A DNA stretch of 64,000 nucleotides from Spirochaetia bacterium (GTDB taxonomy: Bacteria; Spirochaetota; Spirochaetia; CADAEX01), in assembly GCA_045606105.1 (NCBI GenBank), contig JAZURI010000001.1, forward strand, positions 64,001-128,000, given 5' to 3'. Each line of letters begins with the position of its first letter. Positions within the stretch are counted from its first letter, which is position 1. The translations under genes were made by a program, and so were the position numbers. Shown here in pieces: positions 1,909-29,361 of this stretch. A model generated the notes under the pieces. The model was not told the origin of the DNA and made no database searches. It worked only from the letters and a program-made list of their open reading frames with translations.

Positions 1909-2340
1909 TCAGAAGTTGATTTCCTGATTTCCAAATTTTAATTTTTTCGGTGTATAGGTATTATAGTCAAAAGTAAGATAATAAGTGGTTCTGATCATTG
2001 CTCCAAATCCATTCTGTGCATCTACATGTCCTTTTGCCGTTATTGTTCCGTCAGAATTTTTAGATGTGAACTCATATTGGTCAAAAGAGCAGAATTTTGC
2101 TGTTGTAGGTGCTACCAGAAGTTCTTTTATTAATGTTTCACAGTAGTACTTACACATGAATATTTCATCCTTTGTTAAATATGTATGGTCATTTATTTTT
2201 CCGACAAAAGATTTATTTTTATAGATTGGTTCTGTATTAACTAAAACTTCATCTATTTTCTGTTCTACAACCCATACCATAAGGTCATTTTTACTTTCTA
2301 TATTTTTATCTTTAATCAAATAACTTTTGTTGTCATTTAT
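1909..2340 (-). pseudogene. 3' half of a zinc-ribbon membrane protein gene interrupted by the prophage
   Basis: L.APTTAKF...GHVDAQNGFGAMIR domain; joins in frame with 36273-36697 after removing 2341-36272 and one TTTAT copy (...FFDGIN|DNKSYLIKDK...). Confidence 0.9.
2336..2340 (+). repeat. 5-bp target-site duplication TTTAT (left copy)
   Basis: Identical TTTAT at 36273-36277 flanking the TG...CA element. Confidence 0.85.
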
Positions 2341-2343
2341 TGT

Positions 2344-2360
2344 AAAGTTGCATGAAGAAT
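2344..2360 (+). repeat. 17-bp sub-terminal inverted repeat (putative transposase binding site), left
   Basis: AAAGTTGCATGAAGAAT; exact reverse complement at 36105-36121. Confidence 0.7.
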
Positions 2361-2548
2361 AAGAAAACTATTTCTTACTTGTAATTCATTATAAATATCT
2401 ATAAATAAAAGAAATAATTCTATTCATCCTTTATAATTCTCATGAACATTAAAAACTGTTAAAAATGAAGAAAAAAGCCTTTTAAACCCCTGTTTAACCC
2501 CCTTTTTTGACCAATCTTGTTACCTAAACTGTTACCCTAAAATTTTAA

Positions 2549-2576
2549 AGAGAGTACCGGTTTCCCGGCACCCTCT
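2549..2576 (-). terminator. Hairpin/terminator after Dam-family methylase
   Basis: Minus strand AGAGGGTGCCGG-GAAA-CCGGTACTCTCT, 12-bp stem with G-U pairs and GNRA loop; weak U tail. Confidence 0.55.
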
Positions 2577-3358
2577 TAAATCTGATAATTAGCAGTCAAT
2601 ACCTCAATCTTTTCCTTTGGGTTCCCAGACTGAATTGACATAGGCTTTGCCATTCTTATTTCTATCTGATACCAACCATTTTTCTTGGTATATTCTCGAA
2701 GCAGCGGATGTCTAAAGGAACTAAGAAGAAACTTCCCTGAAATAGTTTCCAATAATTGAAGAAGCCGCTCAAAGTCCTCTTTCGAATATCCATCGTAATG
2801 TCCCTGGTCAGTATCCGGATACGGTGGGTCTAAATAAAAGAATGTTTCGGGTCTGTCTCTTGAACTTATTATTTTAAGAGCGTCATAACATTCTATCTGA
2901 ACATTTTGAAGCCTGATAGCCAAATCTTCTGAAAATTGCTCACGCTTGTTTTTAAGCTTTTTAGTTGTAGTTCCGCCCACATCATAACCCCATCCAGCTT
3001 CCCAACTGGCTCCAAAAGAAGCGTTGGCTAAAACCCAAACGGCCCAGGCTCTTTTAATTTTGTCAAACATCTCTGGATTCTCGTTTATTACTCGTGCCTG
3101 GTGATGAAGTCTCCGGCTGTGCAGGCTTATCATAATTTCTTGAGCGAGTAACGAGAAATGATTCTGCAGCACCTCGTAAAAATTGATAAGTTCTCCATTC
3201 GTGTCGTTGATGATTTCCGAAGCGGAAGGTTCCTTCCTGAAAAACACAGCGCCGCCCCCGATAAATGGTTCGCAGTAAATTTCATGTTTTGGCATTAAGC
3301 TGATAATTTTCTGTGCCAGCTGTTGTTTGCCCCCATAGTAAGTAATTGGTGTCTTCAT
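2576..3358 (-). CDS. DNA adenine methyltransferase, D12/Dam class (phage)
   Basis: YYGGK, YCEPFIGGGAVFF, EIINDTN, FFYLDPPY motifs; RBS AAAGGAGG. Confidence 0.9.
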   Translation of the reverse strand: MKTPITYYGGKQQLAQKIISLMPKHEIYCEPFIGGGAVFFRKEPSASEIINDTNGELINFYEVLQNHFSLLAQEIMISLHSRRLHHQARVINENPEMFDKIKRAWAVWVLANASFGASWEAGWGYDVGGTTTKKLKNKREQFSEDLAIRLQNVQIECYDALKIISSRDRPETFFYLDPPYPDTDQGHYDGYSKEDFERLLQLLETISGKFLLSSFRHPLLREYTKKNGWYQIEIRMAKPMSIQSGNPKEKIEVLTANYQI

Positions 3359-3404
3359 TGTTTTCCTCCTTTAGATAATGAAGAACCGCACCGATAAATT
3401 AATT

Positions 3405-3479
3405 ACGGATGATAGCAGTTTTACTGCAGGTGGTGCTACACCTGGCCGGGGGGGGGCGTCCCCTCGACCTGTCATCCGT
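3405..3479 (+). ncRNA. Putative cloverleaf-like structured RNA between the two methylase genes
   Basis: 11-bp closing stem ACGGATGATAG/CTGTCATCCGT enclosing three hairpins; TAGATA-17-TAAATT promoter-like motif ends just upstream. Confidence 0.45.
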
Positions 3480-3496
3480 TTATCTTGCGGTACCAG

Positions 3497-4160
3497 TTAT
3501 TCTTTTTCATTTCCAAATATCCTTTTTTTTGCAATATCGAAGTATTTCTCTTGAATCTCATAACCTATAAACTTGCGATTCAGCACCTTGGCAGCTACAC
3601 CTGTGGTACCACTCCCCATAAAGCAATCCAGGACAACATCGTTTTCTGTTGTACCGTCTTGGATAAGTTTTTTAATAAGGTTGACAGGCTTCTGGGTAGG
3701 ATGGACTTTCTCTCCATCTGTTTTTTTAGCCCCAGAAGAAAACCCAGGAATATCCATAATAACATTACTCCCCCCCCCTCGAAATTTTTGATTTTCCAGT
3801 TGCAAAAATAATAAACTCATGAGCATAGCTATAATAAGAGCCGGGTCCGGCTCCTTTGTCCCAGACTAACAAGTTTTTGATTGTAAGAAACTCATTGATG
3901 ATGGGGTAATAGAACGCATAACCCCGCCAGTCAGTAAAAAAGTAAAAGGAATAATCTGCAGAAAGAACCCTTTTTATTTCTTTCATCAGAGCTTTAAAAA
4001 AATAGGCACTGATATTCAGGTCCGCAAATTCATAGGAACTGCCGTTGTGACTAAGACCTTGGAAGTAAGGAGGGTCTGTAATAATGCAGTTGACGCCGTG
4101 ATCCGGCAGTTTCTTTATTCCTTCGAGGCAATCCGTGTTATAAATTTTTACATTTTCCAT
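3497..4160 (-). pseudogene. Beta-class N6A/N4C DNA methyltransferase, frameshifted at a G9 tract (possibly phase-variable)
   Basis: N-half has IITDPPY, C-half has HPTQKP and VLDCFMGSGTTG; removing one G from the run at 3770-3778 gives a single 220-aa ORF. Confidence 0.85.
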
Positions 4161-4161
4161 A

Positions 4162-4189
4162 TTGACTTCCTTTAAAAATATGTTATTAT
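4162..4189 (+). promoter_or_regulatory. Putative sigma70 promoter facing the MuF 3' end (antisense)
   Basis: TTGACT (4162-4167), 16-nt spacer, extended -10 TGtTATTAT (4181-4189). Confidence 0.55.
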
Positions 4190-4195
4190 TAATTT

Positions 4196-4271
4196 AGAAG
4201 TGGAAACCAAGGAAGCGATGTATTCCCGCCTATGGAATATGGAGCTAAACATTATGGTTTCCATTTTTTTT
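4196..4271 (+). ncRNA. Putative ~75-nt antisense structured RNA overlapping the MuF-nuclease stop codon
   Basis: 5' AGAAGTGGAAACCA pairs with 3' TGGTTTCCATTTTT (G-U only on + strand), inner hairpin TATTCC-7nt-GGAATA, T8 tail, upstream promoter. Confidence 0.45.
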
Positions 4272-5733
4272 GCTTTATCGTTTGCCGTGAAATATTATAA
4301 ATTTTGTTCTGCCAGTCTAAAATTACTTCTTTAACAGGGGTCATAATAACCCCTTTATACAATCCATTAATAATTTCATCGGAAGTTGTTTCTGGCAAGG
4401 CTTTTATATATACAATTCTTGCATGTTGAGCTCGACCAGCCCGCTGAATATCATTAGCAATAGAAGTTGTTTTAGGGTTTTTCATTTCACCAATTTGGTT
4501 GTCAATTAACATGTCTGGATTCTTAACTTTAAAAAGGTTACCAGCAGGCAGCATATAAACCTTGTGTCCATTATCTGCTAATCTCCTTGCATTATCATAT
4601 TCTATTTTTGCATCTGTAGGTTCTTTTGCTTCATCCCAGTTTGTGGCTAGTTTTATATAGCCCCCTGTTTTTGATGTATAGTCCAATTTATACCCTTTAA
4701 GTATTTCTTTCTGATAATTTTTCATGTCAAGGTCATATGCCTCCTGAAGAACATCTTTCCAGATTCCAAAATCCTCTGCTCTTTTAATCATAGACGGAGT
4801 AAGTTGCCACCAACTTTCTTTTTCTACAGGATTACCACCGAATCCCTCCTGTGGTTTAAATTTGCGGAACCGCTTCATAGGAGGTTCCTCAACAATTACA
4901 TCTTTGGCAACCTGGGAACTATAAATTCCACGGAATGTTGTCCTGCAATTAAAATGATAAGGTGGGTATCCATACCGATCCCAGAAAGGATGGTCTGCAG
5001 GGAGAGCCAACCCATTAGTCTCCTGAAAAAGCTCGTGGCAGATATGGCTCTGGCGGTCATCATTGATAAAGAAAAGCTGTATAGCCACCGGTTTTGTATC
5101 TTCAAACTCGGTGAGCTTGCCGGAAGTATATATGGTGTTCATATTTGTCCGGTAAACAGTCTCCCAATAGCCCGGTCTTATCGGATCAATATTATCGGTG
5201 TCTATGAGATTTTTTAAATCGCTCCAGCTCTCTGAAATTCCTTTGCCTTTCTCCACTGCATCTATAAGCTGCTGCTGCACCTGGTATACATAATCTGCCT
5301 TGGTCTGGTTTGCAACGCAAAAAGCTCTAAACCGCAGCTTTGGTTCAAGCTCTTCCCATTCTTCTTGGGTAACAGGAATTTGACCTCTTAAGAAATCAAG
5401 AGATTTATCAAATACGACTTCATCAACATCTGCAGAGTTGATTTTTTTAGCCGCATGATTCATTCCGAGCAAGAACGCTCCGGCAAAGGTTATTTCTGAA
5501 TCTTCTACCAATTTGTTGTCGGATGCGATATCGATAGAATAGGCTTCTTCTATCTTTTCTTTTGCAGGAGCTTTGCCATCTGGTGAAAGATGCTTTAAAT
5601 AGTTTTTTAACTCTTCTGCAACAGCCTTATAAAAACGTTTTTTTGCAGCGGTGACAAAGTTCTCAAACTCCTGGCTTTTTATGACTTCCTCTGCAAAGCT
5701 TGTGTCGCTTAAGAGAAGTTCAGAGCTTTTTTT
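4252..5733 (-). CDS. Mu gpF-like minor head protein with C-terminal CdiA-like PD-(D/E)xK nuclease domain; probably expressed as a portal fusion by frameshift
   Basis: ETVYRTN and WD..YPPYHFNCRT MuF motifs; C-terminal NPDMLIDNQIGEMK...RAGRAQHARIV; frame open from 5733 but first ATG/GTG/TTG only at 5511. Confidence 0.8.
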   Translation of the reverse strand, partial: KKSSELLLSDTSFAEEVIKSQEFENFVTAAKKRFYKAVAEELKNYLKHLSPDGKAPAKEKIEEAYSIDIASDNKLVEDSEITFAGAFLLGMNHAAKKINSADVDEVVFDKSLDFLRGQIPVTQEEWEELEPKLRFRAFCVANQTKADYVYQVQQQLIDAVEKGKGISESWSDLKNLIDTDNIDPIRPGYWETVYRTNMNTIYTSGKLTEFEDTKPVAIQLFFINDDRQSHICHELFQETNGLALPADHPFWDRYGYPPYHFNCRTTFRGIYSSQVAKDVIVEEPPMKRFRKFKPQEGFGGNPVEKESWWQLTPSMIKRAEDFGIWKDVLQEAYDLDMKNYQKEILKGYKLDYTSKTGGYIKLATNWDEAKEPTDAKIEYDNARRLADNGHKVYMLPAGNLFKVKNPDMLIDNQIGEMKNPKTTSIANDIQRAGRAQHARIVYIKALPETTSDEIINGLYKGVIMTPVKEVILDWQNKIYNISRQTIKQKKWKP

Positions 5734-6929
5734 TTACCAGAATCAGAAAGCATAAAACCCTGGGGCTGTGTCTCTTTCTTGAAAGTGTCATCATCATCGG
5801 CAGGCTGTGGCAATCCGTAGTCTGTATAAAGGGCCTGCTTGGACACAGGAACACCTCTGTCTATTGCCTGCATAAGCTGGTCAAAGCTGGCCTTCTTCTC
5901 GACATTGAACTCAAACTTTGGAGCTATGACATCGGGGCCAAAGTTAAGCTCTACAGTCCAGTCAATTACATGCTGGAGGACGTTCTGCAGCTCCAGGGCA
6001 ATTCCCTTGCAGTCCTCATATAAAAGATCTGCCTGGACTTCTCCCAGGGCAAGGCTGCCGCCGTCTGTCTTGCTGGTGGCAATAGCCTGGCCAGTCAGAC
6101 CGTAACAGATTTGTGTGTCGCAGGCGTCGACCAGGGAAGCAAATCCAATAAGATCTCCTGCCATCCCGACTTCCTTGACATCCCGGATATTTGCCACAGC
6201 TGATGCGGAGCCGGACTCCACACCCAGCAGCATGCGGGCTATATCGTCGGCGCGTTTCTGGATTGAATTCTCATCTCCGTCTGCCTCGAACAGAGCGATG
6301 ATTGATTTGACGCTAAACTTCTCGGTGGCCTGGAGCCAGAACTCGTAGCCGGCCTGCTTGAACATCCATGCCCAGTACACGCAGCGGAGGACAGATGTAC
6401 CATAAGGGTTCTCGTCGTCCGGGTCGTGCTGGAAACGGAGCCACTTATAGTCCTCGTCCAGCTTCTTGCGGTCGCCTATGCCGCCCCAGAAAAGTTCCCA
6501 GTCCGCATTGAAGTAAAAGCGGTCAGGTTTCCTGGTGATGATATTCTCCGGTATCCACTTGCCGGAATTTAAAGCCGGATCTGCCCAGACAAGTTCAGAG
6601 ATGGAAAAACCGTAGTCGAGGGCTGCGAGCATTCTTTTCTCTTTTTTGTACATGTTTTGGAACAGGGGGATATTCCTGATAAAATCATATACTTTGTCAG
6701 GGCAATCTTCCGGCTGATTTATAGCGTGTGGGAAATTGAGGGCAGTGGTCTTGAGCTTGTTCAGGAGAGATTTGATCCTACCGTCTGTCCTCATCTTGCG
6801 GTAGGTCTCGTATGACTCGACAGTTCCCGAGACTATGTCATCAGGGTTTGGCATATAGTTGAGGAAAGACCCCAGCTTGTTGTCGTTTATGACCTGGCTG
6901 GTCATTGTTTTTTTGTCCGCTTTTTTCAT
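5709..6929 (-). CDS. Portal protein (Mu gp29/DUF935-like)
   Basis: ALDYGFSISELVW, NPYGTSVLR..YW.W.FK, GGSLALGEVQ motifs; directly after terminase. Confidence 0.9.
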   Translation of the reverse strand: MKKADKKTMTSQVINDNKLGSFLNYMPNPDDIVSGTVESYETYRKMRTDGRIKSLLNKLKTTALNFPHAINQPEDCPDKVYDFIRNIPLFQNMYKKEKRMLAALDYGFSISELVWADPALNSGKWIPENIITRKPDRFYFNADWELFWGGIGDRKKLDEDYKWLRFQHDPDDENPYGTSVLRCVYWAWMFKQAGYEFWLQATEKFSVKSIIALFEADGDENSIQKRADDIARMLLGVESGSASAVANIRDVKEVGMAGDLIGFASLVDACDTQICYGLTGQAIATSKTDGGSLALGEVQADLLYEDCKGIALELQNVLQHVIDWTVELNFGPDVIAPKFEFNVEKKASFDQLMQAIDRGVPVSKQALYTDYGLPQPADDDDTFKKETQPQGFMLSDSGKKKALNFS

Positions 6930-8479
6930 ATTCTCGCTCTCCTGATAATATTCTTTGACTTAGGATGATGGTGGTGCCGGCTTACTGCGACTGTACCGGT
7001 ACCGGCTTTTTCGGCTGCCTTGATTGCCAGCCACAAGCCGTCACACAGGTCATCGTATGCGCCCAGCGGAAATTCTGTAAGCTGGGTCTCTATATTGCTG
7101 GTTCCTTTCTCGGGGAACCGTACAAAGCCGTTCTGTATAAGCATGGAGTAGGACCTGATGCGCATCTCCTTTGATGCGCCGCCGGTACCTACTTTTATAA
7201 TAGGAAGATAAACGCTCCGCTCTATGCCCAGCTTCTGGATATAATTGCCATAGATTCCAGAGAACGCCACATCCTCCCATGCTATTGCGCCGAACCGGTA
7301 AGCCCGGTGCAGCATTATCATCTGATCCACAGTCCTCTGCTCGCTGCAGGCTTCTCCGAAACAAGGCAGCACATAGATGATGCCGGTTTCTTTGTCCCTG
7401 GCAATAGGCACCTCTGCAGTACCGTCGTGCTTGCCTGTCGCAGGGTCGACACCCAGGAAGAACCGCAGGTTCCCTTTGGGTGGCAGGCTGCTGTAACGGT
7501 TGGCATCAATCCATTCCTGTTGGATGATACGCTCCTCATCGGCCAGCGGCTCGTTCATATATTCTGTGCTGAACGCTGCGACACCGATGGTCTTCTTTTT
7601 CTCCTCAAGGGATTCCAGATCCCAGTATTCCGGCCACAGTGGTGTGCCGTCTGGGCGTATACATCCCAGGCGCACGGCAATCCACTTGACCAGGGTACCA
7701 GCCTCCAGCTCACGGCAGAGCCTGGATATAGGGTCGTCGTTGTGGAATATGGTGTTGACCCAGATGATGAATGCTTTCTTGCCCAGATTGAATACAACCC
7801 GTTTAAGCCATCGGTATATCTTGTTCCTCTGGGTAGGTGAGTTTACAGCATCATCCTTCAGAAGGTCGTCTGCTACAATCAGATCAGGGCGGTACTGGCG
7901 GTATCTGGTACCTCGCATGGAGGCACCGGAACCTTTAGACTGCAGGCAGGTGCCGTTTGCAAGCTCAAGCCTCTTGTTGGTCCATACTTTTCCCTGGAGC
8001 TGTCCGAAGTCCTCTGCAAGGCGCTCGTTCTCCTCCAGCTCAAGCTTGATATTGTTAAGGTTCTCGCTGGCAGCGTCACCGCTTGCGCCTATAAGAAGCA
8101 CATATCTTGCGCGGCCGGTCAGGACACACCACAGCACATAAGCAAATGACCAGCGGACTGTCTTACCATGCTCTCTCGGCTCGATGAACATGGCTCCTGA
8201 TATCTTTGTGGTTGCCCGGAGCAGCGGCCAGTATTTCTCCCGGACAAAATATCTCAGGTGCTGGGCGTTAGCTGCAGAGAGGCTGCGGCTGTTGGCCACA
8301 TCATATAGCACCTGCTGGTATTCCGCAGGATCCTCAAAGAAGTAGTCTGATAAATAATACTGGCAGAAAAAGCCGAAGTCCTTGGCCGCTTTCTCTTTGC
8401 GCCGCGCAGCTTCAGAGGCTTTTTCAATATCGTTAAAACTGCCATTTAACAGCTCGGCTAATGCCGATTTATCAGCCAT
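6926..8479 (-). CDS. Terminase large subunit
   Basis: Walker A-like PREHGKT, RPDLIVADD Walker B, FSTEYMNEP, GVDPA and YDDLCDG nuclease motifs. Confidence 0.92.
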   Translation of the reverse strand: MADKSALAELLNGSFNDIEKASEAARRKEKAAKDFGFFCQYYLSDYFFEDPAEYQQVLYDVANSRSLSAANAQHLRYFVREKYWPLLRATTKISGAMFIEPREHGKTVRWSFAYVLWCVLTGRARYVLLIGASGDAASENLNNIKLELEENERLAEDFGQLQGKVWTNKRLELANGTCLQSKGSGASMRGTRYRQYRPDLIVADDLLKDDAVNSPTQRNKIYRWLKRVVFNLGKKAFIIWVNTIFHNDDPISRLCRELEAGTLVKWIAVRLGCIRPDGTPLWPEYWDLESLEEKKKTIGVAAFSTEYMNEPLADEERIIQQEWIDANRYSSLPPKGNLRFFLGVDPATGKHDGTAEVPIARDKETGIIYVLPCFGEACSEQRTVDQMIMLHRAYRFGAIAWEDVAFSGIYGNYIQKLGIERSVYLPIIKVGTGGASKEMRIRSYSMLIQNGFVRFPEKGTSNIETQLTEFPLGAYDDLCDGLWLAIKAAEKAGTGTVAVSRHHHHPKSKNIIRRARI

Positions 8480-9002
8480 TCTCTTCCTTCGCCCTCATGT
8501 TCTTGACAATCTCTAGAATGGTCTTGAGCACGTCAGGATGCTGGTCTTTCAGCTCCTTGTTGAGCTCGGCTATGAAGTCTGCCTTTGCGGACTCATAGCC
8601 CTTGTTATATTTAAGCCGCTCTGCGGCAAGCTTGGTCTGCGATGTGGCAACCGCTGTAACCAGCTTCGAGATATCGCTGACCGATTTGAGTTCTATGCCG
8701 TCGATGTTCTTGATCTCCGACAGGAACTTGGTGGCGATTACGGCATTGATGGCCTCGATGACCTCGGTGCCGGGATTGTTCTTGATAGCTTCGGTAATGG
8801 CCTTGGCCTCTTCGTAGGCCAGGTTGTAATCTTTGGCAGCCTCTGCAGCGGTCTTGACAGTCCTCCGCACCGCCTCCCTGGATATATCTATGCCGTCCTG
8901 TCTGAGGATGGCCTCAATCTGTTTGCATGTGGTTCCTTTCTTGTAGAGCCTGGTTATGCGCTCGACAAGCCCCAGCAGTTCTGCTTTTGACTTTCTACCC
9001 AT
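8472..9002 (-). CDS. Mu gp27/DUF3486-like putative terminase small subunit
   Basis: MGRKSK start, HTH with ISREAVRR, position immediately before large terminase. Confidence 0.75.
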   Translation of the reverse strand: MGRKSKAELLGLVERITRLYKKGTTCKQIEAILRQDGIDISREAVRRTVKTAAEAAKDYNLAYEEAKAITEAIKNNPGTEVIEAINAVIATKFLSEIKNIDGIELKSVSDISKLVTAVATSQTKLAAERLKYNKGYESAKADFIAELNKELKDQHPDVLKTILEIVKNMRAKEENG

Positions 9003-12545: not shown

Positions 12546-13203
12546 TATCTTCCTCCTTGTTCTGGTCTTTCTCTACATGGCTGTAGTATTTCTCAATCGC
12601 TTTCTGCATATCCTTGCGCATATTCTCATAGCTGAGCTTGAGAGCAGGGTTCTCTGGAGATGTTATAAAGATATCCACAACCTTGACCGGAACATCTTCG
12701 CCCCGCCGTACAAGCCAGAATGATGACTCGTTGTCATTGATGGACTCAAGCCGGTAGTTGTCAAGCTCCACCTTTGCAAGGGGTGACTTCTTGAACGATT
12801 CTTCCCAGGGAAACGCCACCTGTTCCTCGGCAGCCCCGAGGTTGTAGTGCTTGTGTTCTGTAAGGGCCTGCTGCTCCTTGTTGCATGAAGCGATAGCCTT
12901 GAGAGCTTCGGACACGGTAAGCCCCTGGATTGCCTCCGGATTCGCCCGGAAATGATGGTATATTTTTATGCTGTTGGCGGCATGGCGTTCCGGGATATTG
13001 AGCAGCTGGTAAAAGTCTTTAAGCTTATAACCGTGGGGGGCTTCGTTCCACAGCTCTTCAAGCTTTCTTCCTGCCTCGAAATACAGCTCGACGGCGCTCA
13101 TTATGGCCTCGTGGGCTCTGCCCGTGCATTCCTCCACCTGTGCATACAGGGCAAGGAGCTCCTCCCTGGGGCTTTTTGCCACTTCGTTCTTTCCTTTTTT
13201 CAT
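12538..13203 (-). CDS. Hypothetical early phage protein (DUF3102-like N-terminus)
   Basis: YFEAGRKL......PHG pattern; ATGA overlap with MuB stop. Confidence 0.6.
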   Translation of the reverse strand: MKKGKNEVAKSPREELLALYAQVEECTGRAHEAIMSAVELYFEAGRKLEELWNEAPHGYKLKDFYQLLNIPERHAANSIKIYHHFRANPEAIQGLTVSEALKAIASCNKEQQALTEHKHYNLGAAEEQVAFPWEESFKKSPLAKVELDNYRLESINDNESSFWLVRRGEDVPVKVVDIFITSPENPALKLSYENMRKDMQKAIEKYYSHVEKDQNKEEDNA

Positions 13204-14111
13204 CTGAAGTTCCTCCTTATCACTTTGCTGGCCGCTATCTCGATGATGTCCGGGTCCGGCTCGGTAAGCTTGTTGAGCAGCATTGCGCTCTGGGTCCGCT
13301 CGATTATCCTGGTGAACTGCCGGACATCTGTCCTGGCCACGGAGTAGACCGCATCGAAGCAGTCTTTGTCAAAACTAGGCCATACCGAACGCATGATTGT
13401 CTCGGCATCCTTCTTGGAAAGACCTCCCAGTGGCAGATATACACCTATGCGGCTCTCCAGCTGCCGATGATCTTCCTTCAGATTCTGGATTATATTCTTG
13501 AGTCTGGGCAGGCCTATAAGAACCAGCCCCGACTGCCCCAGGTCATAGACAAGGCGGCGGGTAAACTCAAGCGCATCCGAGCGCAGATAATCTGCCTCGT
13601 CCAGAATGACAACCATGTCCCTGTCATGCAGCGCATCGGCTGTGTTCTTGACCAGAGTCTGGAACTGCACCCTGGCGGTGTCCAAACCAAGCCGGCGGGC
13701 TATCTCCTGAACCATCATCTTCTTGTTCATTCCGGCCACCACCTCGATCAGGATTGTGCTCCGCTCGTTCTCCCTGGCATACCATTTGGCTGCGGTGGAT
13801 TTACCGCTTCCGGCATCGGCCACAATCAAAGCAATATCCTTCTCGGCATGTGCCATTGAAATGGCGTTGACTATGCGGCGCAGGTCGTCAGTCTCCACCA
13901 CGGGGACAGTCTTTCTGGAATGCGCCTGTTCAAGCCTAGCCAGCCATTTGACTATGGCTTCCTCCAGCTTGGTCACATCACCGGCATAGGTGCCGGCCCT
14001 GTAGGAGCTGAGTGCAGCTCCTGAATAGTTCATGTCCTTGGCCGCCCGGTTCTGGCTGATTCTGTACCGGGCCATCGCATCATTAAGCTTTTGCTTTATC
14101 TGCTCGTTCAT
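13200..14111 (-). CDS. MuB-like transposition AAA+ ATPase
   Basis: N-terminal HTH (GTYAGD), Walker A ADAGSGKST, Walker B ILDEAD, LVLIG, QLESRIG. Confidence 0.92.
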   Translation of the reverse strand: MNEQIKQKLNDAMARYRISQNRAAKDMNYSGAALSSYRAGTYAGDVTKLEEAIVKWLARLEQAHSRKTVPVVETDDLRRIVNAISMAHAEKDIALIVADAGSGKSTAAKWYARENERSTILIEVVAGMNKKMMVQEIARRLGLDTARVQFQTLVKNTADALHDRDMVVILDEADYLRSDALEFTRRLVYDLGQSGLVLIGLPRLKNIIQNLKEDHRQLESRIGVYLPLGGLSKKDAETIMRSVWPSFDKDCFDAVYSVARTDVRQFTRIIERTQSAMLLNKLTEPDPDIIEIAASKVIRRNFR

Positions 14112-14247
14112 TTTTACTCTCTCTTTTCGGCACAATTATCTCTGCTATCTTGGCGGCAGTTACATTCAACGCCTTCTTTATATATCTCTTGCTTCTGAGT
14201 TTCTTCCTCAGTTCCTCAATTTCCTGCTCTGTTAAACATTCAGTCAT
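14083..14247 (-). CDS. Small basic hypothetical protein
   Basis: ATG overlaps lipase stop (ATGACTGA); fills gap before MuB. Confidence 0.5.
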   Translation of the reverse strand: MTECLTEQEIEELRKKLRSKRYIKKALNVTAAKIAEIIVPKRESKNERADKAKA

Positions 14248-14851
14248 ACAGTTCTCCCTTGCCATATCCTATGTGGTATTTTTTCACCTTGAAGATCTCA
14301 ATCAGGCTGAAGCGCCTGCCAACCCAGTGGCTGTTCACATGACAGAATCCGGGCAGAGGCGGAGTGTATGGCACAATATCGTTCGGCTGCCGATACTGGA
14401 CAGCACAGCAGCACTGGACTATGTACTCTGCGGTCTTCTTGGAACCACACACCTTAGGAGCTCCGAATGTGAACACATCGGCCTTCCGTCCGGTTCTCCA
14501 GAACAGATCCTCCGCAGCCAGAAGCGCTATTGCGCCGCCCAGGCTCCAGCCCGCAATTATAGGCTTGGCATCAGGATGCTTAAGACATTCCTGGATTATG
14601 TCATGGATCACCTGGTCGTTTCCGGACTTCCACAGCATGCCAAAACCGCCGTGGACAACCATGCAGGAAGTCTGGTTCTTATACAGCTTCCGGGCAAACC
14701 GGAAGTCATTCCAATAGTCCCGCCAGCTCATGCTACCTTGGAAGAGCAGGGCGGGCCGACCCCCGATCTCTGTCACGCAGTAGTCAAGATCAGCTCCAAC
14801 AGTCTTATAATCTGCGTGTTTTATAAGGCTGAAGAGTTCGTTCTGTCTCAT
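14240..14851 (-). CDS. Class 3 lipase (alpha/beta hydrolase)
   Basis: FQGS, VHGGF, nucleophile elbow GWSLGG, FTFGAPKV, NDIVP..PP, terminal His. Confidence 0.85.
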   Translation of the reverse strand: MRQNELFSLIKHADYKTVGADLDYCVTEIGGRPALLFQGSMSWRDYWNDFRFARKLYKNQTSCMVVHGGFGMLWKSGNDQVIHDIIQECLKHPDAKPIIAGWSLGGAIALLAAEDLFWRTGRKADVFTFGAPKVCGSKKTAEYIVQCCCAVQYRQPNDIVPYTPPLPGFCHVNSHWVGRRFSLIEIFKVKKYHIGYGKGELYD

Positions 14852-16776
14852 TGTTCCTCCTTGTCATCATCCTGCAGATTGAGGTAATCGCTATCCCTCC
14901 TGTCGTACAGGTCGATATATTTATTCTTTGTCTTTTTTCTTGCCGGCTTCGGAAGCTGCTCCGATTCCGGCTTCTTATCCAGGAGGCCAAGCTCCTGGTC
15001 AACTTCAATAACATCGCCCTGGTGATAGATTCCGCCCGCCACATCGGCAAGGGTCTGGAATCCCTCCGGTGCGGCCACTTCGGGCAGGCCACGCTCGGCC
15101 ACAGCCACAAGCCCCTGTTGTCTTGCACCGGTAAGCCTCCGGATGCTTTCCTTGAAGTCGCTTCCTTCCAGGAAGAAGTTCCCCCGGGCATTGCATATAT
15201 GCTCGCCCTTGAGAGTGCTTACCGACACCTCGTCGTCGCTAATCAGGCTGGTGTATACACGCACCTCGGTGCCCACATACATCTGCAGGTCAGGGTGCCA
15301 GTAGTTCACGCCGCCAACCTTGACACCGTTCCGGCCGCACTTGCGGATCTCGCCTGTGCATAATGCTGCCGCCAGGGTCTCCTTGCTGACCCTGCGAACC
15401 TGTGAAGGGTCATAGTTCTCCTGGAACACCTGGCTTCTGGTCTTTCCCTCCATGCCCTTGCCCTGGCTCTCGAATCTGTCGTTGATATAGAGGACCATCT
15501 TATTAGCGAACGCTAGGAACTCATCCCAGGAGGGGATATCGTCTCTTTTAGCCTTTCCATCAATGGAGCGGAACATAAGCTGCGCATCCTCCGGCTGGGT
15601 GCGTGTGTCACTTCCCAGGTAGGTACCGAAATCCTTGGCCAGGTATTCGGCCAGGATACGGAAATAGCGCTCCTGCCTGCCTTTTGACTTGCCATTATAT
15701 GTCCGGGTGAAGTGCACCTCGCTTCCTACAATGTTGAAAATGCCTGAGAAGCGCACCTCGGTTTCCTCGCTCATTCCCTCCGGGGTCATAGTCCTGGCGG
15801 TGGTGGTCCAGCCGTTGAGGATCTTCGATCGGTAGTCCTTGCCGTTGTCAAAAAGCAGCTCCCTGGGCACTCCGTACTGCAACACAGCCATGTAGTAGGC
15901 CACAATGATGGAGAGGCTCGACGGCCGGACACTGAAGCACCAGCCTAAAACCTTGCCGCTCCGGTAGTCCTGCATGGTGGTGATCCACGGCCGCACCAGC
16001 TTGCCGTGGTACATGCACACGCAGTCCAGGACATGGTGATCGGAAACCACCCGGTCCATCGACTTGTAGGCCTCCACGTTCTGTTCCATATAGGGCAGGT
16101 ATCTGTTCTCGAACTGGCTGTCGCCCAGCCGGTACTTGTCCCTTATAGCGGGCGGTATCGACTTGAGGAACCGCGCAGCCGTGGAATATGTGCACCGGCT
16201 GTAGGGCACGTTGGCCTTCATAAGCCTGAGCGCATGGCTCATGGTGGGCTGAGAGGTCTGCAGCCAGAATTTGGCCAGCAGATTCTTCTCGGTCTCCGTC
16301 AGCTGCTCTCCTGCGCCGCCCCGGCTTATGCCGTAGCGCGGTGTCACGCCGCTGGCCCCGTTTGCGGTCCAGTCGCGCAGCCATCTGTAGAAAGTGGCCA
16401 GCGACACCTCGCCCAGCTTGCTGTAGATCACTTTTTCTATCTGCTGGCTGTTGTAGGCTTCCACAAAGTCCTGCTTCCTCATGCCGCTGTGGCGGAATGA
16501 TAGCAGCAGGGCGCTCCGCCATGTGGCGGTCTCCCTGGACTTGTCGCTCGCAGCCATGTAAGCCTGTCCGGCCAGGACAGCGCCGCCCTCGCGCTCCTTG
16601 TTCTGCCTTGCGGCGAGCATGAAGCGGATGTCCATGGGCAGCCGGTTCTCCACAAACTGGAGCCCGCCGGATCTCTCGACGCAGGGCCAGCCCTCTTTCC
16701 GCGCCCTCTCAAGCACAGACTTGCGGGTTATGCCCAGCACGTCGGCCAGCTCTCTGGTTCTGACATAATCACTCAT
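14848..16776 (-). CDS. MuA-like DDE transposase
   Basis: N-terminal Mu DNA-binding HTH (ERARKEGW), catalytic SDHH / FDNGKDY / SKGRQERYF, C-terminal Mu-transpos_C-like region. Confidence 0.95.
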   Translation of the reverse strand: MSDYVRTRELADVLGITRKSVLERARKEGWPCVERSGGLQFVENRLPMDIRFMLAARQNKEREGGAVLAGQAYMAASDKSRETATWRSALLLSFRHSGMRKQDFVEAYNSQQIEKVIYSKLGEVSLATFYRWLRDWTANGASGVTPRYGISRGGAGEQLTETEKNLLAKFWLQTSQPTMSHALRLMKANVPYSRCTYSTAARFLKSIPPAIRDKYRLGDSQFENRYLPYMEQNVEAYKSMDRVVSDHHVLDCVCMYHGKLVRPWITTMQDYRSGKVLGWCFSVRPSSLSIIVAYYMAVLQYGVPRELLFDNGKDYRSKILNGWTTTARTMTPEGMSEETEVRFSGIFNIVGSEVHFTRTYNGKSKGRQERYFRILAEYLAKDFGTYLGSDTRTQPEDAQLMFRSIDGKAKRDDIPSWDEFLAFANKMVLYINDRFESQGKGMEGKTRSQVFQENYDPSQVRRVSKETLAAALCTGEIRKCGRNGVKVGGVNYWHPDLQMYVGTEVRVYTSLISDDEVSVSTLKGEHICNARGNFFLEGSDFKESIRRLTGARQQGLVAVAERGLPEVAAPEGFQTLADVAGGIYHQGDVIEVDQELGLLDKKPESEQLPKPARKKTKNKYIDLYDRRDSDYLNLQDDDKEEQ

Positions 16777-17573: not shown

Positions 17574-17830
17574 AGGCTTTGTCTTCTTATATAGAAGATT
17601 GTTGCAATTATCAGTCCCGACATAGGTTTCGGCGGCAGTCTTTGCCATTGCCTTGAGCTTGTTTTTCTTCATTATCAGTATCCCCCTGTTAAAGTTTTGG
17701 CCCGGCCTGCCGAAAATGTAATTAGGCTTGCAGAGCTTGCTACTGTATTTTTTGCTGATGAAACGTTAGCTTATAATTCATAAGAAAAAATCCAATTAGG
17801 ATGTAAAAACTGCTTATGTTTTATAAGCAA

Positions 17831-17879
17831 AAAATAAACGATAAATCGACACAAGTCAATAGATTTTGTCGAAAAATCT
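17831..17879 (-). promoter_or_regulatory. Putative early promoter and operator region divergent from repressor
   Basis: Minus strand TTGACT-17-TATTTT (17859-17831); ATCGACACAA repeated at 17845 and 17918; dyad AGATTTT-GTCGA-AAAATCT at 17861-17879. Confidence 0.5.
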
Positions 17880-17899
17880 TAATTTTGAGGTTATTTTTT

Positions 17900-18844
17900 A
17901 TGGATTGGATAAGAATTATCGACACAATTGAAAGTAAATTCCCAGATAAATCTATTTCAAAGCTGTGTAATGTTCGCTCACAATATATTTCTGATTTGAA
18001 GTCTGGAAAATCAAAAAATCCGGGTTCGGAGTTTACTCTTAAGCTTATTAAGAATTATAACTTAAACCCGAGCTGGCTTTTGAATGAAAAATTACCCATG
18101 TTTTTAGCTGGAACATTTGATGACCAGTTTAGTGCAGAAGAATCAGCAAGCGGTAATGCAGCTGAGCAACTAAAAACTATTAGGCTAATGAAAAACCTTT
18201 CTCAAAGAAAGCTTGCTGAGCTTTTAGAGATTAGCCCAAGTACTATCGCTACGATTGAATCAGCACAGGGCCAGAATCGGCGGGATATTCCCAAAGCTGC
18301 AATGCGTGCTCTGGTTGAAAAAATGAATGTGAATGCCCATTGGCTGCTTACAGGCCAAGGTCCCATGTTTATAGAACAGGACGATGAACATTCCATAACC
18401 GGCTACCGCATTCCTGTACTCAAGCAGAAGGCGTCAGCCGGCCCGGGCCAGGACTGGCAGGGCGAGGAGAATATAGAGCGGTACCTGGACTCTGTCCTGG
18501 ACCTCTCGGCCAGCTTCAGGAAGATCAAGCCCTACGCCTTCGAGGTGCGGGGCGGCAGTATGGCAGGCGCAGGGATCCACTCGGGCGACATAGTGATATT
18601 CGACCCGCATCCGGCGGAGCTGCCGGATGACATCTATGTATATGCACTGGACGGCAGTGTGTTCGTCAAATACATTGTATTCGACGATGCGGACAAGACC
18701 ATAACAACATACAGCTGCATGCCGGACGGTGTGCATAAGCAGGTGGCGGTTATCCACCCGGACGACCCGGCCGATGCCGAGCGGTTCCACCTGTTCGGCA
18801 GGGTCATAGCGTGGCTGCATGAGAACCATCTCATGCGCCGCTGA
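17900..18844 (+). CDS. Prophage repressor: two tandem XRE HTH domains plus S24 peptidase
   Basis: Two HTH units ending NPSWLL..PMF and NAHWLLTGQGPMF; ASAG cleavage-site-like motif, VRGGSM (Ser), VFVK (Lys). Confidence 0.88.
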   Translation: MDWIRIIDTIESKFPDKSISKLCNVRSQYISDLKSGKSKNPGSEFTLKLIKNYNLNPSWLLNEKLPMFLAGTFDDQFSAEESASGNAAEQLKTIRLMKNLSQRKLAELLEISPSTIATIESAQGQNRRDIPKAAMRALVEKMNVNAHWLLTGQGPMFIEQDDEHSITGYRIPVLKQKASAGPGQDWQGEENIERYLDSVLDLSASFRKIKPYAFEVRGGSMAGAGIHSGDIVIFDPHPAELPDDIYVYALDGSVFVKYIVFDDADKTITTYSCMPDGVHKQVAVIHPDDPADAERFHLFGRVIAWLHENHLMRR

Positions 18845-28948: not shown

Positions 28949-29361
28949 TGAGAGACACACTTCCTTGCTGGGCCGGTGACTACATAGGGATTCCGTTTGT
29001 ATCTGGCGGCAGAGACCCGGACACAGGGCTTGACTGCTACGGCCTTTTTCGGCTCGTGATGAACGACCGCTACGGGAAGAAGCTCCCGGCACTAGATGCG
29101 GGGTACAAGGATGCCTGCAATCCTTCTGAGACCAACAAGATCTACGCAAAGAACAAGCCGCTCATTGCAGGGAGCAGGATTGCGCAGCCCGTGCCTGGCT
29201 GCGGAGTCGTGCTTAAATACTCGGGGCTTCCCACACATGTGGGAGTCTATGTAGGCGGCGGCTATATACTGCATACAACAGCACAGACCGGCGCGGTGCT
29301 TGAGTCTGTGGACAGCCCGCAGATCCGCTGCAGGATAGAAGGATACTATAATGTCAATTAA
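28948..29361 (+). CDS. NlpC/P60 tail-associated peptidase (lambda K-like)
   Basis: YIGIPF..GGRD...GLDCYGL, HVGVY.GGG.ILH. Confidence 0.85.
   Translation: MRDTLPCWAGDYIGIPFVSGGRDPDTGLDCYGLFRLVMNDRYGKKLPALDAGYKDACNPSETNKIYAKNKPLIAGSRIAQPVPGCGVVLKYSGLPTHVGVYVGGGYILHTTAQTGAVLESVDSPQIRCRIEGYYNVN

Follow-up and report, generated by a model that had tools for sequence, protein, structure and literature searches.

In the window, the whole stretch of 64,000 nt from a Spirochaetia bacterium that was analysed, we found a predicted small RNA gene with its own promoter that converges on the 3' end of a prophage MuF gene and takes the site of the small coupled ORF seen in other MuF cassettes. The layout was conserved in dozens of related loci and was inherited together with nuclease-like C-terminal domains of MuF proteins; copies of the RNA gene also persisted where such a domain had been lost. 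Judged from sequence, the RNA may act in trans as an antidote or immunity partner of the MuF nuclease domain, a reading which we favour tentatively and rate at somewhat below an even chance. The protein-coding features of the locus were as follows:

4252..5511, minus strand: MuF gene of a Mu-like prophage, stop codon TAA at 4252-4254, product of 419 aa (TTG start) or 403 aa (ATG at 5463).
4255..4674, minus strand: MuF C-terminal domain (aa 280-419), CdiA-CT(Bp1026b)-like and of PD-(D/E)xK nuclease type according to profile, alignment and structure model.
3497..4160, minus strand: N6/N4 DNA methylase, the next gene downstream of MuF, split into the overlapping ORFs 3765-4160 and 3497-3826.

The MuF product contained the Phage_Mu_F domain PF04233 (aa 77-193, E 5.6e-11), and its gene lay in a prophage morphogenesis context, with portal and terminase genes upstream and a Mu-type transposase and B protein. 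The MuF C-terminus matched the Pfam family CdiA_C (PF18451) with 22.3 bits (E 1.5e-4), under the gathering cut-off of 26.6, and PF18451 was listed in the precomputed domain table for the relative P0002. In a profile search, only the CdiA-CT of Bp1026b (E 1.7e-4) passed the default E cut-off of 0.001. The AF2 model of the 140-aa C-terminal domain had a pLDDT of 90.5, and at E <= 0.001 Foldseek matched it to 4g6v_A alone (E 5e-5, TM 0.60/0.63, probability 1.00), aligned over 123 columns at 21% identity with the PD motif common to both. An alignment of 13 domain sequences revealed that P53, D54 and K65 were invariant and that E/D63 was conserved; these residues would be the catalytic ones. Thus the domain models as a toxin-type, CdiA-CT(Bp1026b)-like nuclease that is presumably toxic, and the CdiA-type toxin domain which the first-pass annotation had placed on MuF was borne out by the fold, with the Pfam score below its threshold. 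The CdiA-CT of Bp1026b has been called a tRNA nuclease (Jamet 2017, PMC5576092).

Downstream of MuF, only 91 nt (4161-4251) separated the stop codon from the methylase. This gap had no ORF of at least 40 aa on the gene strand and no room for a CdiI-type immunity protein gene, and the absence of an immunity ORF reported earlier was therefore confirmed. The CdiA-CT of Burkholderia pseudomallei 1026b (4g6v), in contrast, uses a type V system for delivery and is neutralised by the protein CdiI, whereas no protein gene stands at that place here. In related contigs, the methylase carried 1-2 nt insertions at 3769-3773. Megablast of 2500-9000 gave no match among phage GenBank records; the C-terminal domain, used as a single-protein query against viral contigs, gave none, and alignment-based searches gave relatives.

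The gap and the adjoining end of MuF held the following elements of a gene on the opposite strand:

4162..4167, plus strand: TTGACT, the -35 element of the promoter assigned to the small RNA; the start codon of the methylase, on the opposite strand, is 2 nt away.
4181..4189, plus strand: extended -10 element TG-n-TATTAT, with the -10 hexamer at 4184-4189 and a 16-nt spacer from TTGACT.
4196..4271, plus strand: predicted small non-coding RNA of about 70-76 nt, its start deduced from the promoter position and its 3' end from that of the T8 run.
4200..4209, plus strand: 5' arm of the closing stem (GTGGAAACCA), placed from the fold and the alignment of relatives.
4219..4241, plus strand: inner hairpin predicted by folding, with an 8-bp stem (4219-4226/4234-4241) and the 7-nt loop CGCCUAU (4227-4233).
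4255..4271, plus strand: 3' arm of the closing stem with the T8 tail, overlapping the MuF stop and last six codons (K-K-W-K-P region).

The promoter, hairpin and T8 tail that the first-pass annotation had described at 4162-4271 on the plus strand were all present there. The promoter (4162-4189) matched 10 of 12 consensus positions and was the joint best, with one minus-strand site, of the promoter-like sites in 2000-7000; a minus-strand site of this kind also occurred at 4321-4294. Every gene from 2576 to about 17500 lay on the minus strand, so the promoter opposed the late operon and nothing on the plus strand upstream was transcribed towards the hairpin. The homologous promoters in two loci of the same genus (L112 and L116) were TGGTATATT and TGCTATAGT, respectively.

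Folded as plus-strand RNA, 4196-4271 reached -25.4 kcal/mol (z -4.3), which was equalled by none of 200 shuffles, compared with -18.9 kcal/mol (z -3.05) for the minus strand. The outer stem (4197-4209 with 4255-4267) had 13 pairs on the plus strand and only 9 on the minus strand; the terminal pairing of 14 bp proposed earlier, with wobbles favouring the plus strand, was thus recovered with one pair fewer, and the proposed inner stem with a 7-nt loop was found as well. The T8 run (4264-4271) was the complement of the K-K-(Q) codons just ahead of W-K-P-stop, as had been noted for the last codons of the toxin domain. Stem and T8 run stood on the plus strand and would probably terminate the small RNA; with its interior of 45 nt, which includes the inner hairpin, the structure was not listed by a simple terminator scan. 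The stretch 4255..4271 was identical in the window and L112. One pair of the closing stem was C-G in the window and U.G in L112 and L116, which is a wobble on the plus strand only and would be an A.C mismatch on the MuF strand.

We searched for known identities and targets of the element. Rfam gave no family for the element, either in the window with E <= 10 or, at gathering score, for the RNA of 20 related loci, where the sole match was TD-1, elsewhere in L016; ARAGORN placed no tRNA-like gene at the element. Complementarity of at least 11 nt to the RNA was absent from the 64-kb window outside its own locus. The element was present as a single copy in its own genome at E <= 0.001, and two further short, weak matches at E <= 0.1 (E 0.03-0.055) were taken for chance. 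A coding reading of the plus-strand ORF 4200-4334 (44 aa, partly hydrophobic) was rejected, as its homologues in L112 and L116 ran into stops after 3-5 codons. Mimicry of a tRNA anticodon loop was likewise rejected as a general feature: the second position of the window loop is G, and the apical loops of 52 related RNAs ranged from 3 to 8 nt. The hairpin of the window alone could have been a chance structure; in our sequence comparison, the recurrence of the entire layout across dozens of related loci rules this out.

To evaluate this conservation, we compared loci with CdiA_C-like MuF domains. Of 37 non-redundant loci, 31 had an antisense promoter at a distance of 45-135 nt from the stop codon of MuF, compared with 9 of 75 in the sense-strand control for the same search, and five of the six misses had near-miss promoters by eye. 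Among further metagenome loci, the layout was seen by eye in 10 of 10, with a TTGA -35 in 8. Promoter sequence and distance were kept across more than 40 loci; TTGAC was found in 31 of 40 distinct promoters, and C preceded TTG in 34 of 40. Compensatory changes affected 9 of 13 pairs in an alignment of 13 sequences (A4), with 23 wobble cells versus 3 A.C cells, and 10 of 21 pairs in an alignment of 5 sequences (A5), with 8 wobble cells versus 2 A.C cells. Because of these compensatory changes and the G-U bias, the fold was assigned to the strand opposite MuF, which was the better folder in 30 of 41 distinct RNAs. A convergent promoter and a covarying stem, which one would look for in domain-bearing MuF genes on the strength of the first-pass annotation, were therefore both present.

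The same layout also occurred behind MuF genes with a second C-terminal domain, LPD3 (PF18798), whereas loci with other or no C-terminal domains had it in 1 of 38 cases, a chance-like level. For LPD3, the best VIA matches were 7m5f_C, a chain of a CDI system (Z 5.4), and the CdiA-CT-containing 6cp9 (Z 5.0), followed by RelE, BrnT and ParE toxins (Z 4.9-4.0), all of them under the safe level of the tool; Foldseek gave nothing at E <= 0.001. In these models, both RNA-linked domains look like RNases, LPD3 weakly so. In a tree of 71 MuF N-terminal sequences, 40 rows combined a nuclease-type C-terminus with the RNA, 30 had another or no C-terminus and no RNA, one (L045) had a nuclease-type C-terminus without the RNA and none had the RNA beside another C-terminus, where the nuclease-type class took in LPD3 only after its RNA had been seen. 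Independent pairs on this tree pointed in the same direction in 5 of 5 cases (sign test, p = 0.0625). These comparisons support the view that the RNA module is tied to the nuclease-type domain and not to the phage backbone.

The domain and the RNA appeared to travel as one exchangeable block, which was delimited by comparison with related contigs:

4190..4805, no strand assigned: swappable cassette made of the MuF C-terminal part and the transcribed part of the RNA gene.

A 12.8-kb contig of the sequencing run X3 matched the window at 5600-4806 and again at 4189-4098, with 97% identity over 4098-4189, and had 580 unlike letters in place of the 616 between. A search of sequencing runs for the locus gave no RNA run; contigs of four DNA runs were compared in all, with a coverage that excluded 4214-4287 and was hence uninformative on the RNA body. 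Analogous boundaries were found among L037, L041 and L001. The N-terminal DNA of L037 and L041 was 93% identical, and the two loci differed by precisely a block comprising the C-terminal domain, the RNA and the promoter; between L037 and L001, and between the window and the X3 contig, linker and promoter were kept, and C-terminal domain and RNA body were exchanged jointly.

Previous work has reported that a small ORF follows 89.4% of 191 MuF toxin genes (Jamet 2017, PMC5576092). In the present study, 16 of 30 loci with other C-termini had a diverse small ORF of 52-85 aa, with a start at -25 to +4 relative to the stop codon of MuF. Tblastn with these small ORFs found none downstream of RNA-type loci, and relatives with the CdiA_C-like domain had no consistent coupled ORF. 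The RNA module thus occupied the site of the small coupled ORF of other MuF cassettes, in line with the earlier remark on a protein immunity gene at this place.

RNA genes with their promoters also persisted where the domain was cut to 5-36 codons or was absent (L112, L116, L131 and L135). At L136/L137 and the syntenic L129, two different RNA genes stood in tandem beside host genes; tandem copies were otherwise seen only in L068. Such orphans speak for the antidote reading, and the RNA model used in the search was built without the promoter; those found with this model are, however, ascertained by the RNA itself, which limits their weight. In L116, a second RNA gene of the same kind faced a 121-aa ORF of no known family, which indicated that the module is not confined to MuF.

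Taken as an antidote, the system might work as follows. The RNA gene shares one exchangeable cassette with the nuclease-like C-terminal part of MuF, and its own sigma-70-type promoter, directed against the late operon, would allow the RNA to be made during silence of the late genes, for instance in a lysogen. The product would be a long irregular hairpin with closing 5' and 3' ends and a U-tail, most likely the cognate neutraliser of the domain and thus the RNA equivalent of a small immunity protein encoded at this site in other MuF effector cassettes. It could act in trans on the protein, either as a bound inhibitor or as an uncleavable substrate decoy, as type III antitoxin RNAs do. Of the RNA antitoxin or decoy suggested by the first-pass annotation, the conserved, nuclease-linked structured RNA in the immunity place stood, and the classical type III layout was not found. 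Some observations speak against an antidote. L045 has the domain and no RNA; the minimum free energy of the LPD3-group RNAs was lower on the sense strand; and the RNA sequences were very diverse, with no one structure or motif common to all. The RNA gene adjoins the domain, and exchange between conserved flanks moves both, so that linkage could suffice for their co-inheritance. Moreover, MuF-fused enzymes may be injected anti-host effectors for which immunity is unneeded (Iyer 2017).

Linkage is also what an independent prophage small RNA or insulator would invoke, and we consider this the case with perhaps a one-in-four chance: promoter and bidirectional-type terminator would serve to regulate host or phage genes in trans or simply stop convergent and read-through transcription, and the link with the domain would be positional only. 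The A-run before and the T-run after the hairpin in L008 and L010 have the look of a bidirectional terminator, the module opposite a non-MuF gene in L116 and the orphans in host intergenic regions fit such a role, and co-transfer would need no other cause. It agrees poorly with the sharp sorting (RNA to no RNA, 40:1 for nuclease-type and 0:30 for the rest, LPD3 being classed as above) and the 5 of 5 independent switches, with the replacement of the small coupled ORF at exactly this site, with an RNA body that diversifies with the domain under a constant promoter, and with the lack of complementary targets of at least 11 nt elsewhere in the 64-kb window. Regulation of the methylase through its 5' UTR was rejected as a general explanation, as downstream genes and distances vary among relatives. 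A plain intrinsic terminator beside a chance promoter-like sequence in AT-rich DNA is the least credible of the explanations. Promoter-like sites in 2000-7000 were as common as in shuffled sequence (12 versus a mean of 10.2), and stem and T8 resemble a terminator; but no plus-strand transcription arrives from upstream genes, the simple scan passed over the structure with its 45-nt interior, and a promoter conserved in sequence and distance in more than 40 loci contradicts the idea.

A cis-antisense regulator similar to lambda OOP or to a 3'-overlapping type I antitoxin would bind the late MuF transcript by base pairing, at its 3' end or in its intergenic part, and lead to cleavage or decay, which would limit leaky expression of the nuclease in lysogens or uncouple MuF from downstream genes. 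The RNA shows full complementarity to the 3' UTR of MuF, extending in the window into the last six codons, and a variable body under a conserved promoter is what cis-antisense pairing needs. U-turn recognition loops have 7 nt and begin with C-U, and many apical loops of the family have this form, including 13 of 17 predicted 7-nt loops. On the other hand, coding overlap was nil in most relatives, where the A-run comes after the stop; orphan RNA genes kept strong promoters where a MuF transcript is impossible; conserved internal motifs and compensatory changes imply constraint beyond complementarity; and antisense pairing would give no protection from a nuclease injected by a related phage. We regard this explanation as unlikely, with about one chance in five. 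The antisense option of the first-pass annotation was accordingly correct as to complementarity, and pure antisense action fitted less well with the small overlap and the orphans. Very improbable is a role of the RNA as a cofactor, guide or packaged partner that directs or activates the nuclease after injection. It would explain the co-inheritance of RNA and domain and nothing further: the promoter opposes the late operon, so co-expression would not be by design, orphan RNAs without a nuclease are hard to account for, and we know of no precedent for an RNA cofactor or guide of a CdiA-CT-like nuclease fold.

The antidote reading can be compared with known systems. Convergent antisense RNAs at gene 3' ends include lambda OOP and, in B. 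subtilis prophages, txpA/RatA and bsrG/SR4. These likewise combine a strong promoter directed at the end of a phage or prophage gene, a highly structured RNA of about 70-100 nt and an intrinsic terminator that overlaps the target end; here, however, coding overlap is minimal or nil and orphan copies lack a target, and in place of the small hydrophobic membrane peptide of type I pairs there is a 419-aa virion protein with a 140-aa nuclease-like domain. Type III systems (ToxIN) and the prophage AbiF/RCd22 of C. difficile (bioRxiv 10.1101/2025.04.15.648962) resemble our proposal in that a small structured RNA neutralises an RNase-type protein by direct binding, the two being encoded side by side on a phage or prophage. 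Type III RNAs are tandem repeats upstream of the toxin and co-transcribed with it, whereas the unit described here is single, lies beyond the MuF stop on the other strand and has a promoter and terminator of its own; the type III toxin is a free protein of ToxN/Abi-like fold, and here it is a PD-(D/E)xK/CdiA-CT-like domain of a virion protein. MuF polymorphic toxins (Jamet 2017, PMC5576092; Zhang 2012, PMC3482391) likewise have a variable enzymatic C-terminus on a conserved N-terminal part in a prophage, and they also swap the C-terminal domain and its neighbour as a cassette and leave displaced orphan modules; their neighbour is a small co-directional ORF, in contrast to the convergent small RNA gene found here. 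In the orphan immunity arrays of CDI, Rhs and T6SS (Kirchberger 2017, PMC5361080), single or tandem antidote copies similarly outlast the toxin, with short remnants of the toxin 3' end alongside (here L112, L116, L131, L135 and L136/L137); the units kept in our loci are RNA genes.

In the article texts searched, we found no description of an RNA gene beside a MuF nuclease; supplements of the MuF papers may list individual MuF genes that lack a downstream ORF. The searched text of PMC3482391 contains "small RNA" once and has no occurrence of "antisense RNA", "no immunity" or "lack immunity", and that of PMC5576092 has none of "no immunity". What defines polymorphic toxin cassettes (CDI, Rhs, T6SS and MuF) is a toxin domain with an immunity protein gene behind it, and toxin domains without a recognisable immunity gene usually go unexplained. 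In the present study, a whole clade of MuF cassettes with two different RNase-like domains had a conserved RNA gene with its own promoter in the place of the immunity gene. Even if it were only an antisense regulator, this would be a widespread, unnamed RNA family of spirochaete-associated Mu-like phages with clear covariation. More broadly, and with slightly less confidence than for the single locus, a small-RNA family may provide the immunity to polymorphic nuclease toxins that phages deliver, each RNase-type domain of MuF having its own cognate RNA and bacteria collecting orphan RNA genes, singly or in arrays, against the injected nucleases of related phages. If true, polymorphic toxin systems would have their first case of RNA immunity, and protein-RNA toxin-antitoxin pairs a new, convergently transcribed architecture; the range of RNA antitoxins would also widen beyond type III abortive-infection modules to effectors that phages inject. 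Cases of missing immunity would then be explained, with a new class of small RNAs to seek beside nuclease toxins, and the orphan RNA genes and arrays would represent an unseen level of resistance in the interplay of phages and lysogens.

The gap between the prophage MuF gene and the methylase gene beside it covered 91 nt (4161-4251) and contained no ORF on the gene strand. On the opposite strand, a promoter with 10 of 12 consensus positions, joint-first among the promoter-like sites in 2000-7000, preceded a predicted small RNA gene convergent with the 3' end of MuF. The features of the region are as follows:

2576-3358 (-), D12 Dam methylase, 3' of MuF
3765-4160 and 3497-3826 (-), overlapping ORFs of a split N6/N4 DNA methylase, 3' of MuF
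4162-4167 (+), -35 hexamer TTGACT, 16-nt spacer to the -10
ending at 4189 (+), extended -10 element TG-n-TATTAT
4196-4271 (+), predicted RNA gene
4252-5511 (-), MuF gene, Phage_Mu_F domain at aa 77-193
5709-6929 (-), Mu-type portal
upstream of MuF among the minus-strand genes (-), small and large terminase
13203-14135 (-), B protein
14851-16776 (-), Mu-type transposase
17816-18841, CI/S24-type repressor of the Mu-like prophage (region 2000-36000)
19901 (+), head protease
21406 (+), major head protein
25483 (+), tape measure protein
29351-34735 (+), 1794-aa ORF

The folding energy of 4196-4271 was -25.4 kcal/mol (z -4.3) on the + strand versus -18.9 kcal/mol (z -3.05) on the opposite strand. 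A 13-pair closing stem enclosed an inner 8-pair hairpin with a 7-nt loop and was followed by T8; the 3' arm and T-run lay antisense to the last MuF codons (K-K-W-K-P-stop). The first-pass annotation had described this gap, promoter and fold, with T8 over the last MuF codons, and its description was accurate. A second promoter-like site, TTTAGA-16-TATAAT (10/12 matches), was located on the gene strand at 4294-4321 (-), within the final 70 nt of MuF; transcription from this site would give a methylase mRNA whose 5' leader contains the complement of the RNA.

The prophage had two divergent arms. The minus strand carried every gene from about 17500 down to 2576, including the transposition, packaging and MuF genes. 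In L005 and other related loci (L-numbers), the head genes were located 3' of MuF on the same strand, suggesting that the arms reflect an inversion, a chimeric assembly or a different layout. G+C was 0.37-0.40 in 2001-6000 and 0.51-0.58 in the adjoining phage genes. The low-G+C stretch took in the MuF gene, the RNA gene and the two methylases, left out the portal gene except for its first 489 nt, and would fit recently exchanged cargo. The two overlapping methylase ORFs indicated a frameshift near 3765-3826; contigs of sequencing runs X2 and X3 covering the methylase carried insertions of 1-2 nt at 3769-3773, which makes an intact gene probable in relatives.

Relatives of the C-terminal domain were gathered from viral contigs, GTDB genomes and metagenomes, together with MuFs of the same subfamily whatever their C-terminus. 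All named records among the GTDB-genome relatives were Treponema or Treponemataceae MAGs. Directly 3' of the MuF stop, the relatives carried an A-run together with a G+C-rich stem whose structured interior measured 30-45 nt; a second small hairpin was often present. The opposite strand carried a -10 plus a C-TTGAC -35. In a uniform scan of 75 non-redundant loci (at least 8/12 matches, 45-135 nt from the MuF stop), this antisense promoter was detected in 31 of 37 loci with the CdiA_C-like domain versus 5 of 38 without it, and the sense-strand control was positive in 9/75. By eye, five of the six misses were near-misses (L038, L039, L040, L044 and L063), and L045 had no promoter. The layout was also recognized by eye in 10/10 metagenome loci, with a TTGA -35 in eight and TTTACT in two. 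Among 40 distinct promoters, 31 contained TTGAC and 34 had a C before TTG, a position not selected by the scan. The spacer often read TTTT-(A/C)CCG-AAAA or similar (e.g., L008, L014, L015, L010 and L017), a partly palindromic motif that could be an operator. Several IMG/VR contigs (L004, L009, L010, L015 and others) stopped 0-735 nt past the MuF stop, which suggests assembly breaks from variable cargo 3' of the RNA gene. L016 carried a TD-1 RNA motif (RF03155, 72.2 bits, above the gathering score) at 3879-4002 (+), about 460 nt 3' of the MuF stop.

The promoter and RNA were also found at five MuFs without the CdiA_C-like domain (L049, L051, L057, L059 and L061), which carried Pfam LPD3 (PF18798) instead (E 1e-11 to 9e-15). 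The RNA was absent with an HExxH-motif C-terminus (judged by eye; no Pfam match), with a glutamine-deamidase domain, and with other MuF extensions or none. An IQ-TREE phylogeny of the N-terminal MuF region contained 71 rows, after exclusion of five that lacked the linker motif or had too short an N-terminus. Its RNA labels came from a separate scan (within 135 nt), which missed L068 because two tandem RNAs there put the promoter beyond its range; L068 was relabelled RNA-positive by eye. With a CdiA_C-like or LPD3 C-terminus, 40 loci had the RNA and one (L045) lacked it; with another or no C-terminal domain, the counts were 0 and 30. The C-terminal class changed at least seven times on the tree, and independent pairs on well-supported branches agreed in direction in 5/5 cases (sign test p = 0.0625, the floor for five pairs). 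LPD3 entered the RNA-linked class only after its RNA was seen; for the CdiA_C-like class alone, four to five of five pairs agreed. These sequence comparisons indicated that the predicted RNA tracks the C-terminal domain, not the phage.

Three comparisons located the breakpoints of exchange. L037 and L041 shared 93% DNA identity up to MuF codon 323 and 84% again from just past the -35; between these flanks, L037 had 645 nt with the nuclease domain, RNA and promoter, whereas in L041 this space was filled by 1177 unrelated nt encoding another domain and a small ORF. Between L037 and L001, both RNA-type, only the 57-nt promoter region was common after the linker (95% identity). A 12.8-kb contig of run X3 matched the window at about 87% over 5600-4806 and 97% over 4189-4098, with 580 unlike letters replacing 4805-4190; the break coincided with the final base of the -10 hexamer. 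These breakpoints indicated that the domain and the predicted transcribed RNA body swap together, as a single unit bounded by two conserved elements, the GFGGNP...ESWW linker and the promoter.

The position of the RNA was occupied differently in other cassettes. At 16 of the 30 loci with another C-terminus, a same-strand ORF of 52-85 aa started -25 to +4 nt from the MuF stop. These ORFs were mutually unrelated, bar one family of four, had no significant Pfam family, and were not found by tblastn 3' of RNA-type loci. They match the pattern in the available text of Jamet et al. (PMC5576092), where small ORFs after MuF toxin genes were taken as immunity genes (89.4% of 191). Only 3/40 RNA-type loci had a 50-90-aa ORF at this position, each running through the RNA. 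The predicted RNA gene occupies the place of the small ORF.

To compare the strands, 41 distinct RNAs were folded from predicted start to T-run. The antisense strand folded better in 30 (mean difference -4.1 kcal/mol; Wilcoxon p = 7e-4, which is overstated, as the loci are kin). In an alignment of 13 RNAs from two related groups, 9/13 consensus pairs had compensatory changes, with 23 G.U versus 3 A.C cells. In the five LPD3-group RNAs, 10/21 pairs were compensatory (8 G.U versus 2 A.C cells), although minimum free energy favored the sense strand. Their apical loop AUUGGUU complements AGCC(A/G)AU of the 3' internal loop, making a pseudoknot possible. At L068 3694-3880 (-), the two tandem RNA genes 3' of one MuF had near-identical middles and flanking stems differing by compensatory changes (CCCCAC/GUGGGG versus GUGGCAC/GUGCCAU). 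The nearest homologues of the window's RNA, L112 and L116, came from two genomes of the same genus and kept the promoter, start region, 3' arm and T-run, with a different interior. A closing-stem C-G pair of the window was U.G in both, a wobble on the RNA strand only. The window's 44-aa + strand ORF was closed in both, which ruled out a coding reading and argues that the RNA is non-coding. No Rfam family matched the window's RNA at E ≤ 10 or the RNAs of 20 related loci at the gathering score. The strand comparisons indicated that the predicted RNA is encoded opposite MuF.

The first-pass annotation had also proposed a CdiA-type nuclease domain, which the fold supported and the sequence left borderline: the CdiA_C match (MuF aa 330-383) scored 22.3 bits, below the Pfam cut-off of 26.6. 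The last 140 residues formed a rare domain, with 32 matching clusters at E ≤ 0.001 among 1.84 billion representatives. P53-D54, an acidic residue at 63 and K65, a PD...(E/D)xK pattern, were kept in 13 aligned members. An AF2 model built from this alignment (pLDDT 90.5) had one Foldseek match in the PDB at E ≤ 0.001, 4g6v_A, the CdiA-CT of B. pseudomallei 1026b (E 5e-5, probability 1.00, TM 0.60/0.63, 21% identity), with Holliday-junction resolvases far behind. A sequence-profile search again returned only 4g6v_A (E 1.7e-4). This CdiA-CT is cited as a tRNA nuclease in the available text of Jamet et al. (PMC5576092), and we infer nuclease activity for the MuF domain. The AF2 model of LPD3 (pLDDT 85.0) had no Foldseek match at E ≤ 0.001. 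Against 48,161 representative chains, its top matches were the CDI toxins 7m5f_C (Z 5.4) and 6cp9_A (Z 5.0), followed by RelE, BrnT, ParE and YoeB toxins, with colicin D and EndoU lower, all at Z below the tool's own safe level. These matches only hint that both RNA-linked domains may be RNases.

RNA genes were also found apart from an intact domain. In the window's own family, a protein search of 20 genomes turned up a 36-codon tail of the domain in genome G004 (L112). This locus was a prophage remnant, about 400 nt long, flanked by host genes; its RNA gene, promoter and terminator were intact, and two deletions cut the methylases. In G006 (L116), the last five domain codons adjoined an intact RNA gene, and another such RNA gene faced a 121-aa ORF of no known family. 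L116 968-2467, from the window's genus, held six copies of a 44-nt repeat, CTTTTATAAGCTT...GGCAGGT.GTCAAAC, spaced 166-413 nt apart, downstream of an ORF with a polyvalent-protein InPase domain (PF18823, E 1e-44). Several copies lay directly upstream of small minus-strand ORFs; the six copies may represent repeated promoters or the borders of cassettes.

A covariance model built on the 3' hairpin alone was run against 151 genomes from the family to which a Treponema MAG belongs. It gave 13 matches in 10 genomes; such an RNA-based search detects only remnants that retain the RNA. Two matches were training sites (L124 and L125), three were plain terminators by eye (L132, L133 and L134), three adjoined an intact MuF nuclease domain (L127, L128 and L130; HMM E 1e-54 to 1e-62), one adjoined only a 32-residue domain tail (L131), and four had no domain within 1.5 kb (L129, L135, L136 and L137). 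L135 was a solitary RNA gene between host genes. At L136/L137 (G074) and the syntenic L129 (G117), RNA genes of two different types stood in a tandem array, with a possible third unit and a separate promoter for each; the neighbors of the array were host genes named by eye, a putative MATE-type transporter and a TetR-type regulator, and no phage gene was nearby. The promoter, which lies outside the search model, was clearly intact by eye at three of four distinct orphan sites (TTGACA-17-GATAGT, TTGACT-17-TATACT and TTGACA-17-TATAAT). Displaced second RNA copies were found 3' of intact MuF at L068 and perhaps L021. The arrays resemble those of orphan immunity genes at other polymorphic toxin loci in the available text of PMC5361080.

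The best fit to these observations, held tentatively, is a candidate RNA that would act in trans as the cognate neutralizer of the nuclease domain. This reading draws on the independent, outward-facing strong promoter, the stable closed hairpin with its U-tail, structure under selection, co-diversification and co-transfer with an RNase-like domain, the substitution for a small coupled ORF, and orphans persisting with promoters. Cis-antisense action against the 3' end of MuF would account for the orientation and the variable RNA body, but it leaves the orphans and the conserved internal motifs unexplained, and we consider it improbable. Co-transfer would also follow from adjacency alone if the element were a linked but unrelated small RNA or insulator, and in L116 the module stood beside a non-MuF gene; this explanation is unlikely, though a shade less so. 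Moreover, MuF fusions are read as injected effectors against host defenses in the available text of Iyer et al. (PMC5512222); such an effector would require no immunity, which would leave the RNA with a different role.

As for the trans-acting neutralizer, no RNA partner of MuF or another polymorphic toxin was found in the available full-text literature, including PMC5576092 and PMC3482391. Its nearest functional precedents are type III systems and, from the available text on it, the prophage AbiF/RCd22 pair, both of which differ in layout from the MuF RNA module. The RNA family is apparently unnamed so far, and the finding represents a variant on two known themes, polymorphic toxin cassettes and RNA antitoxins.
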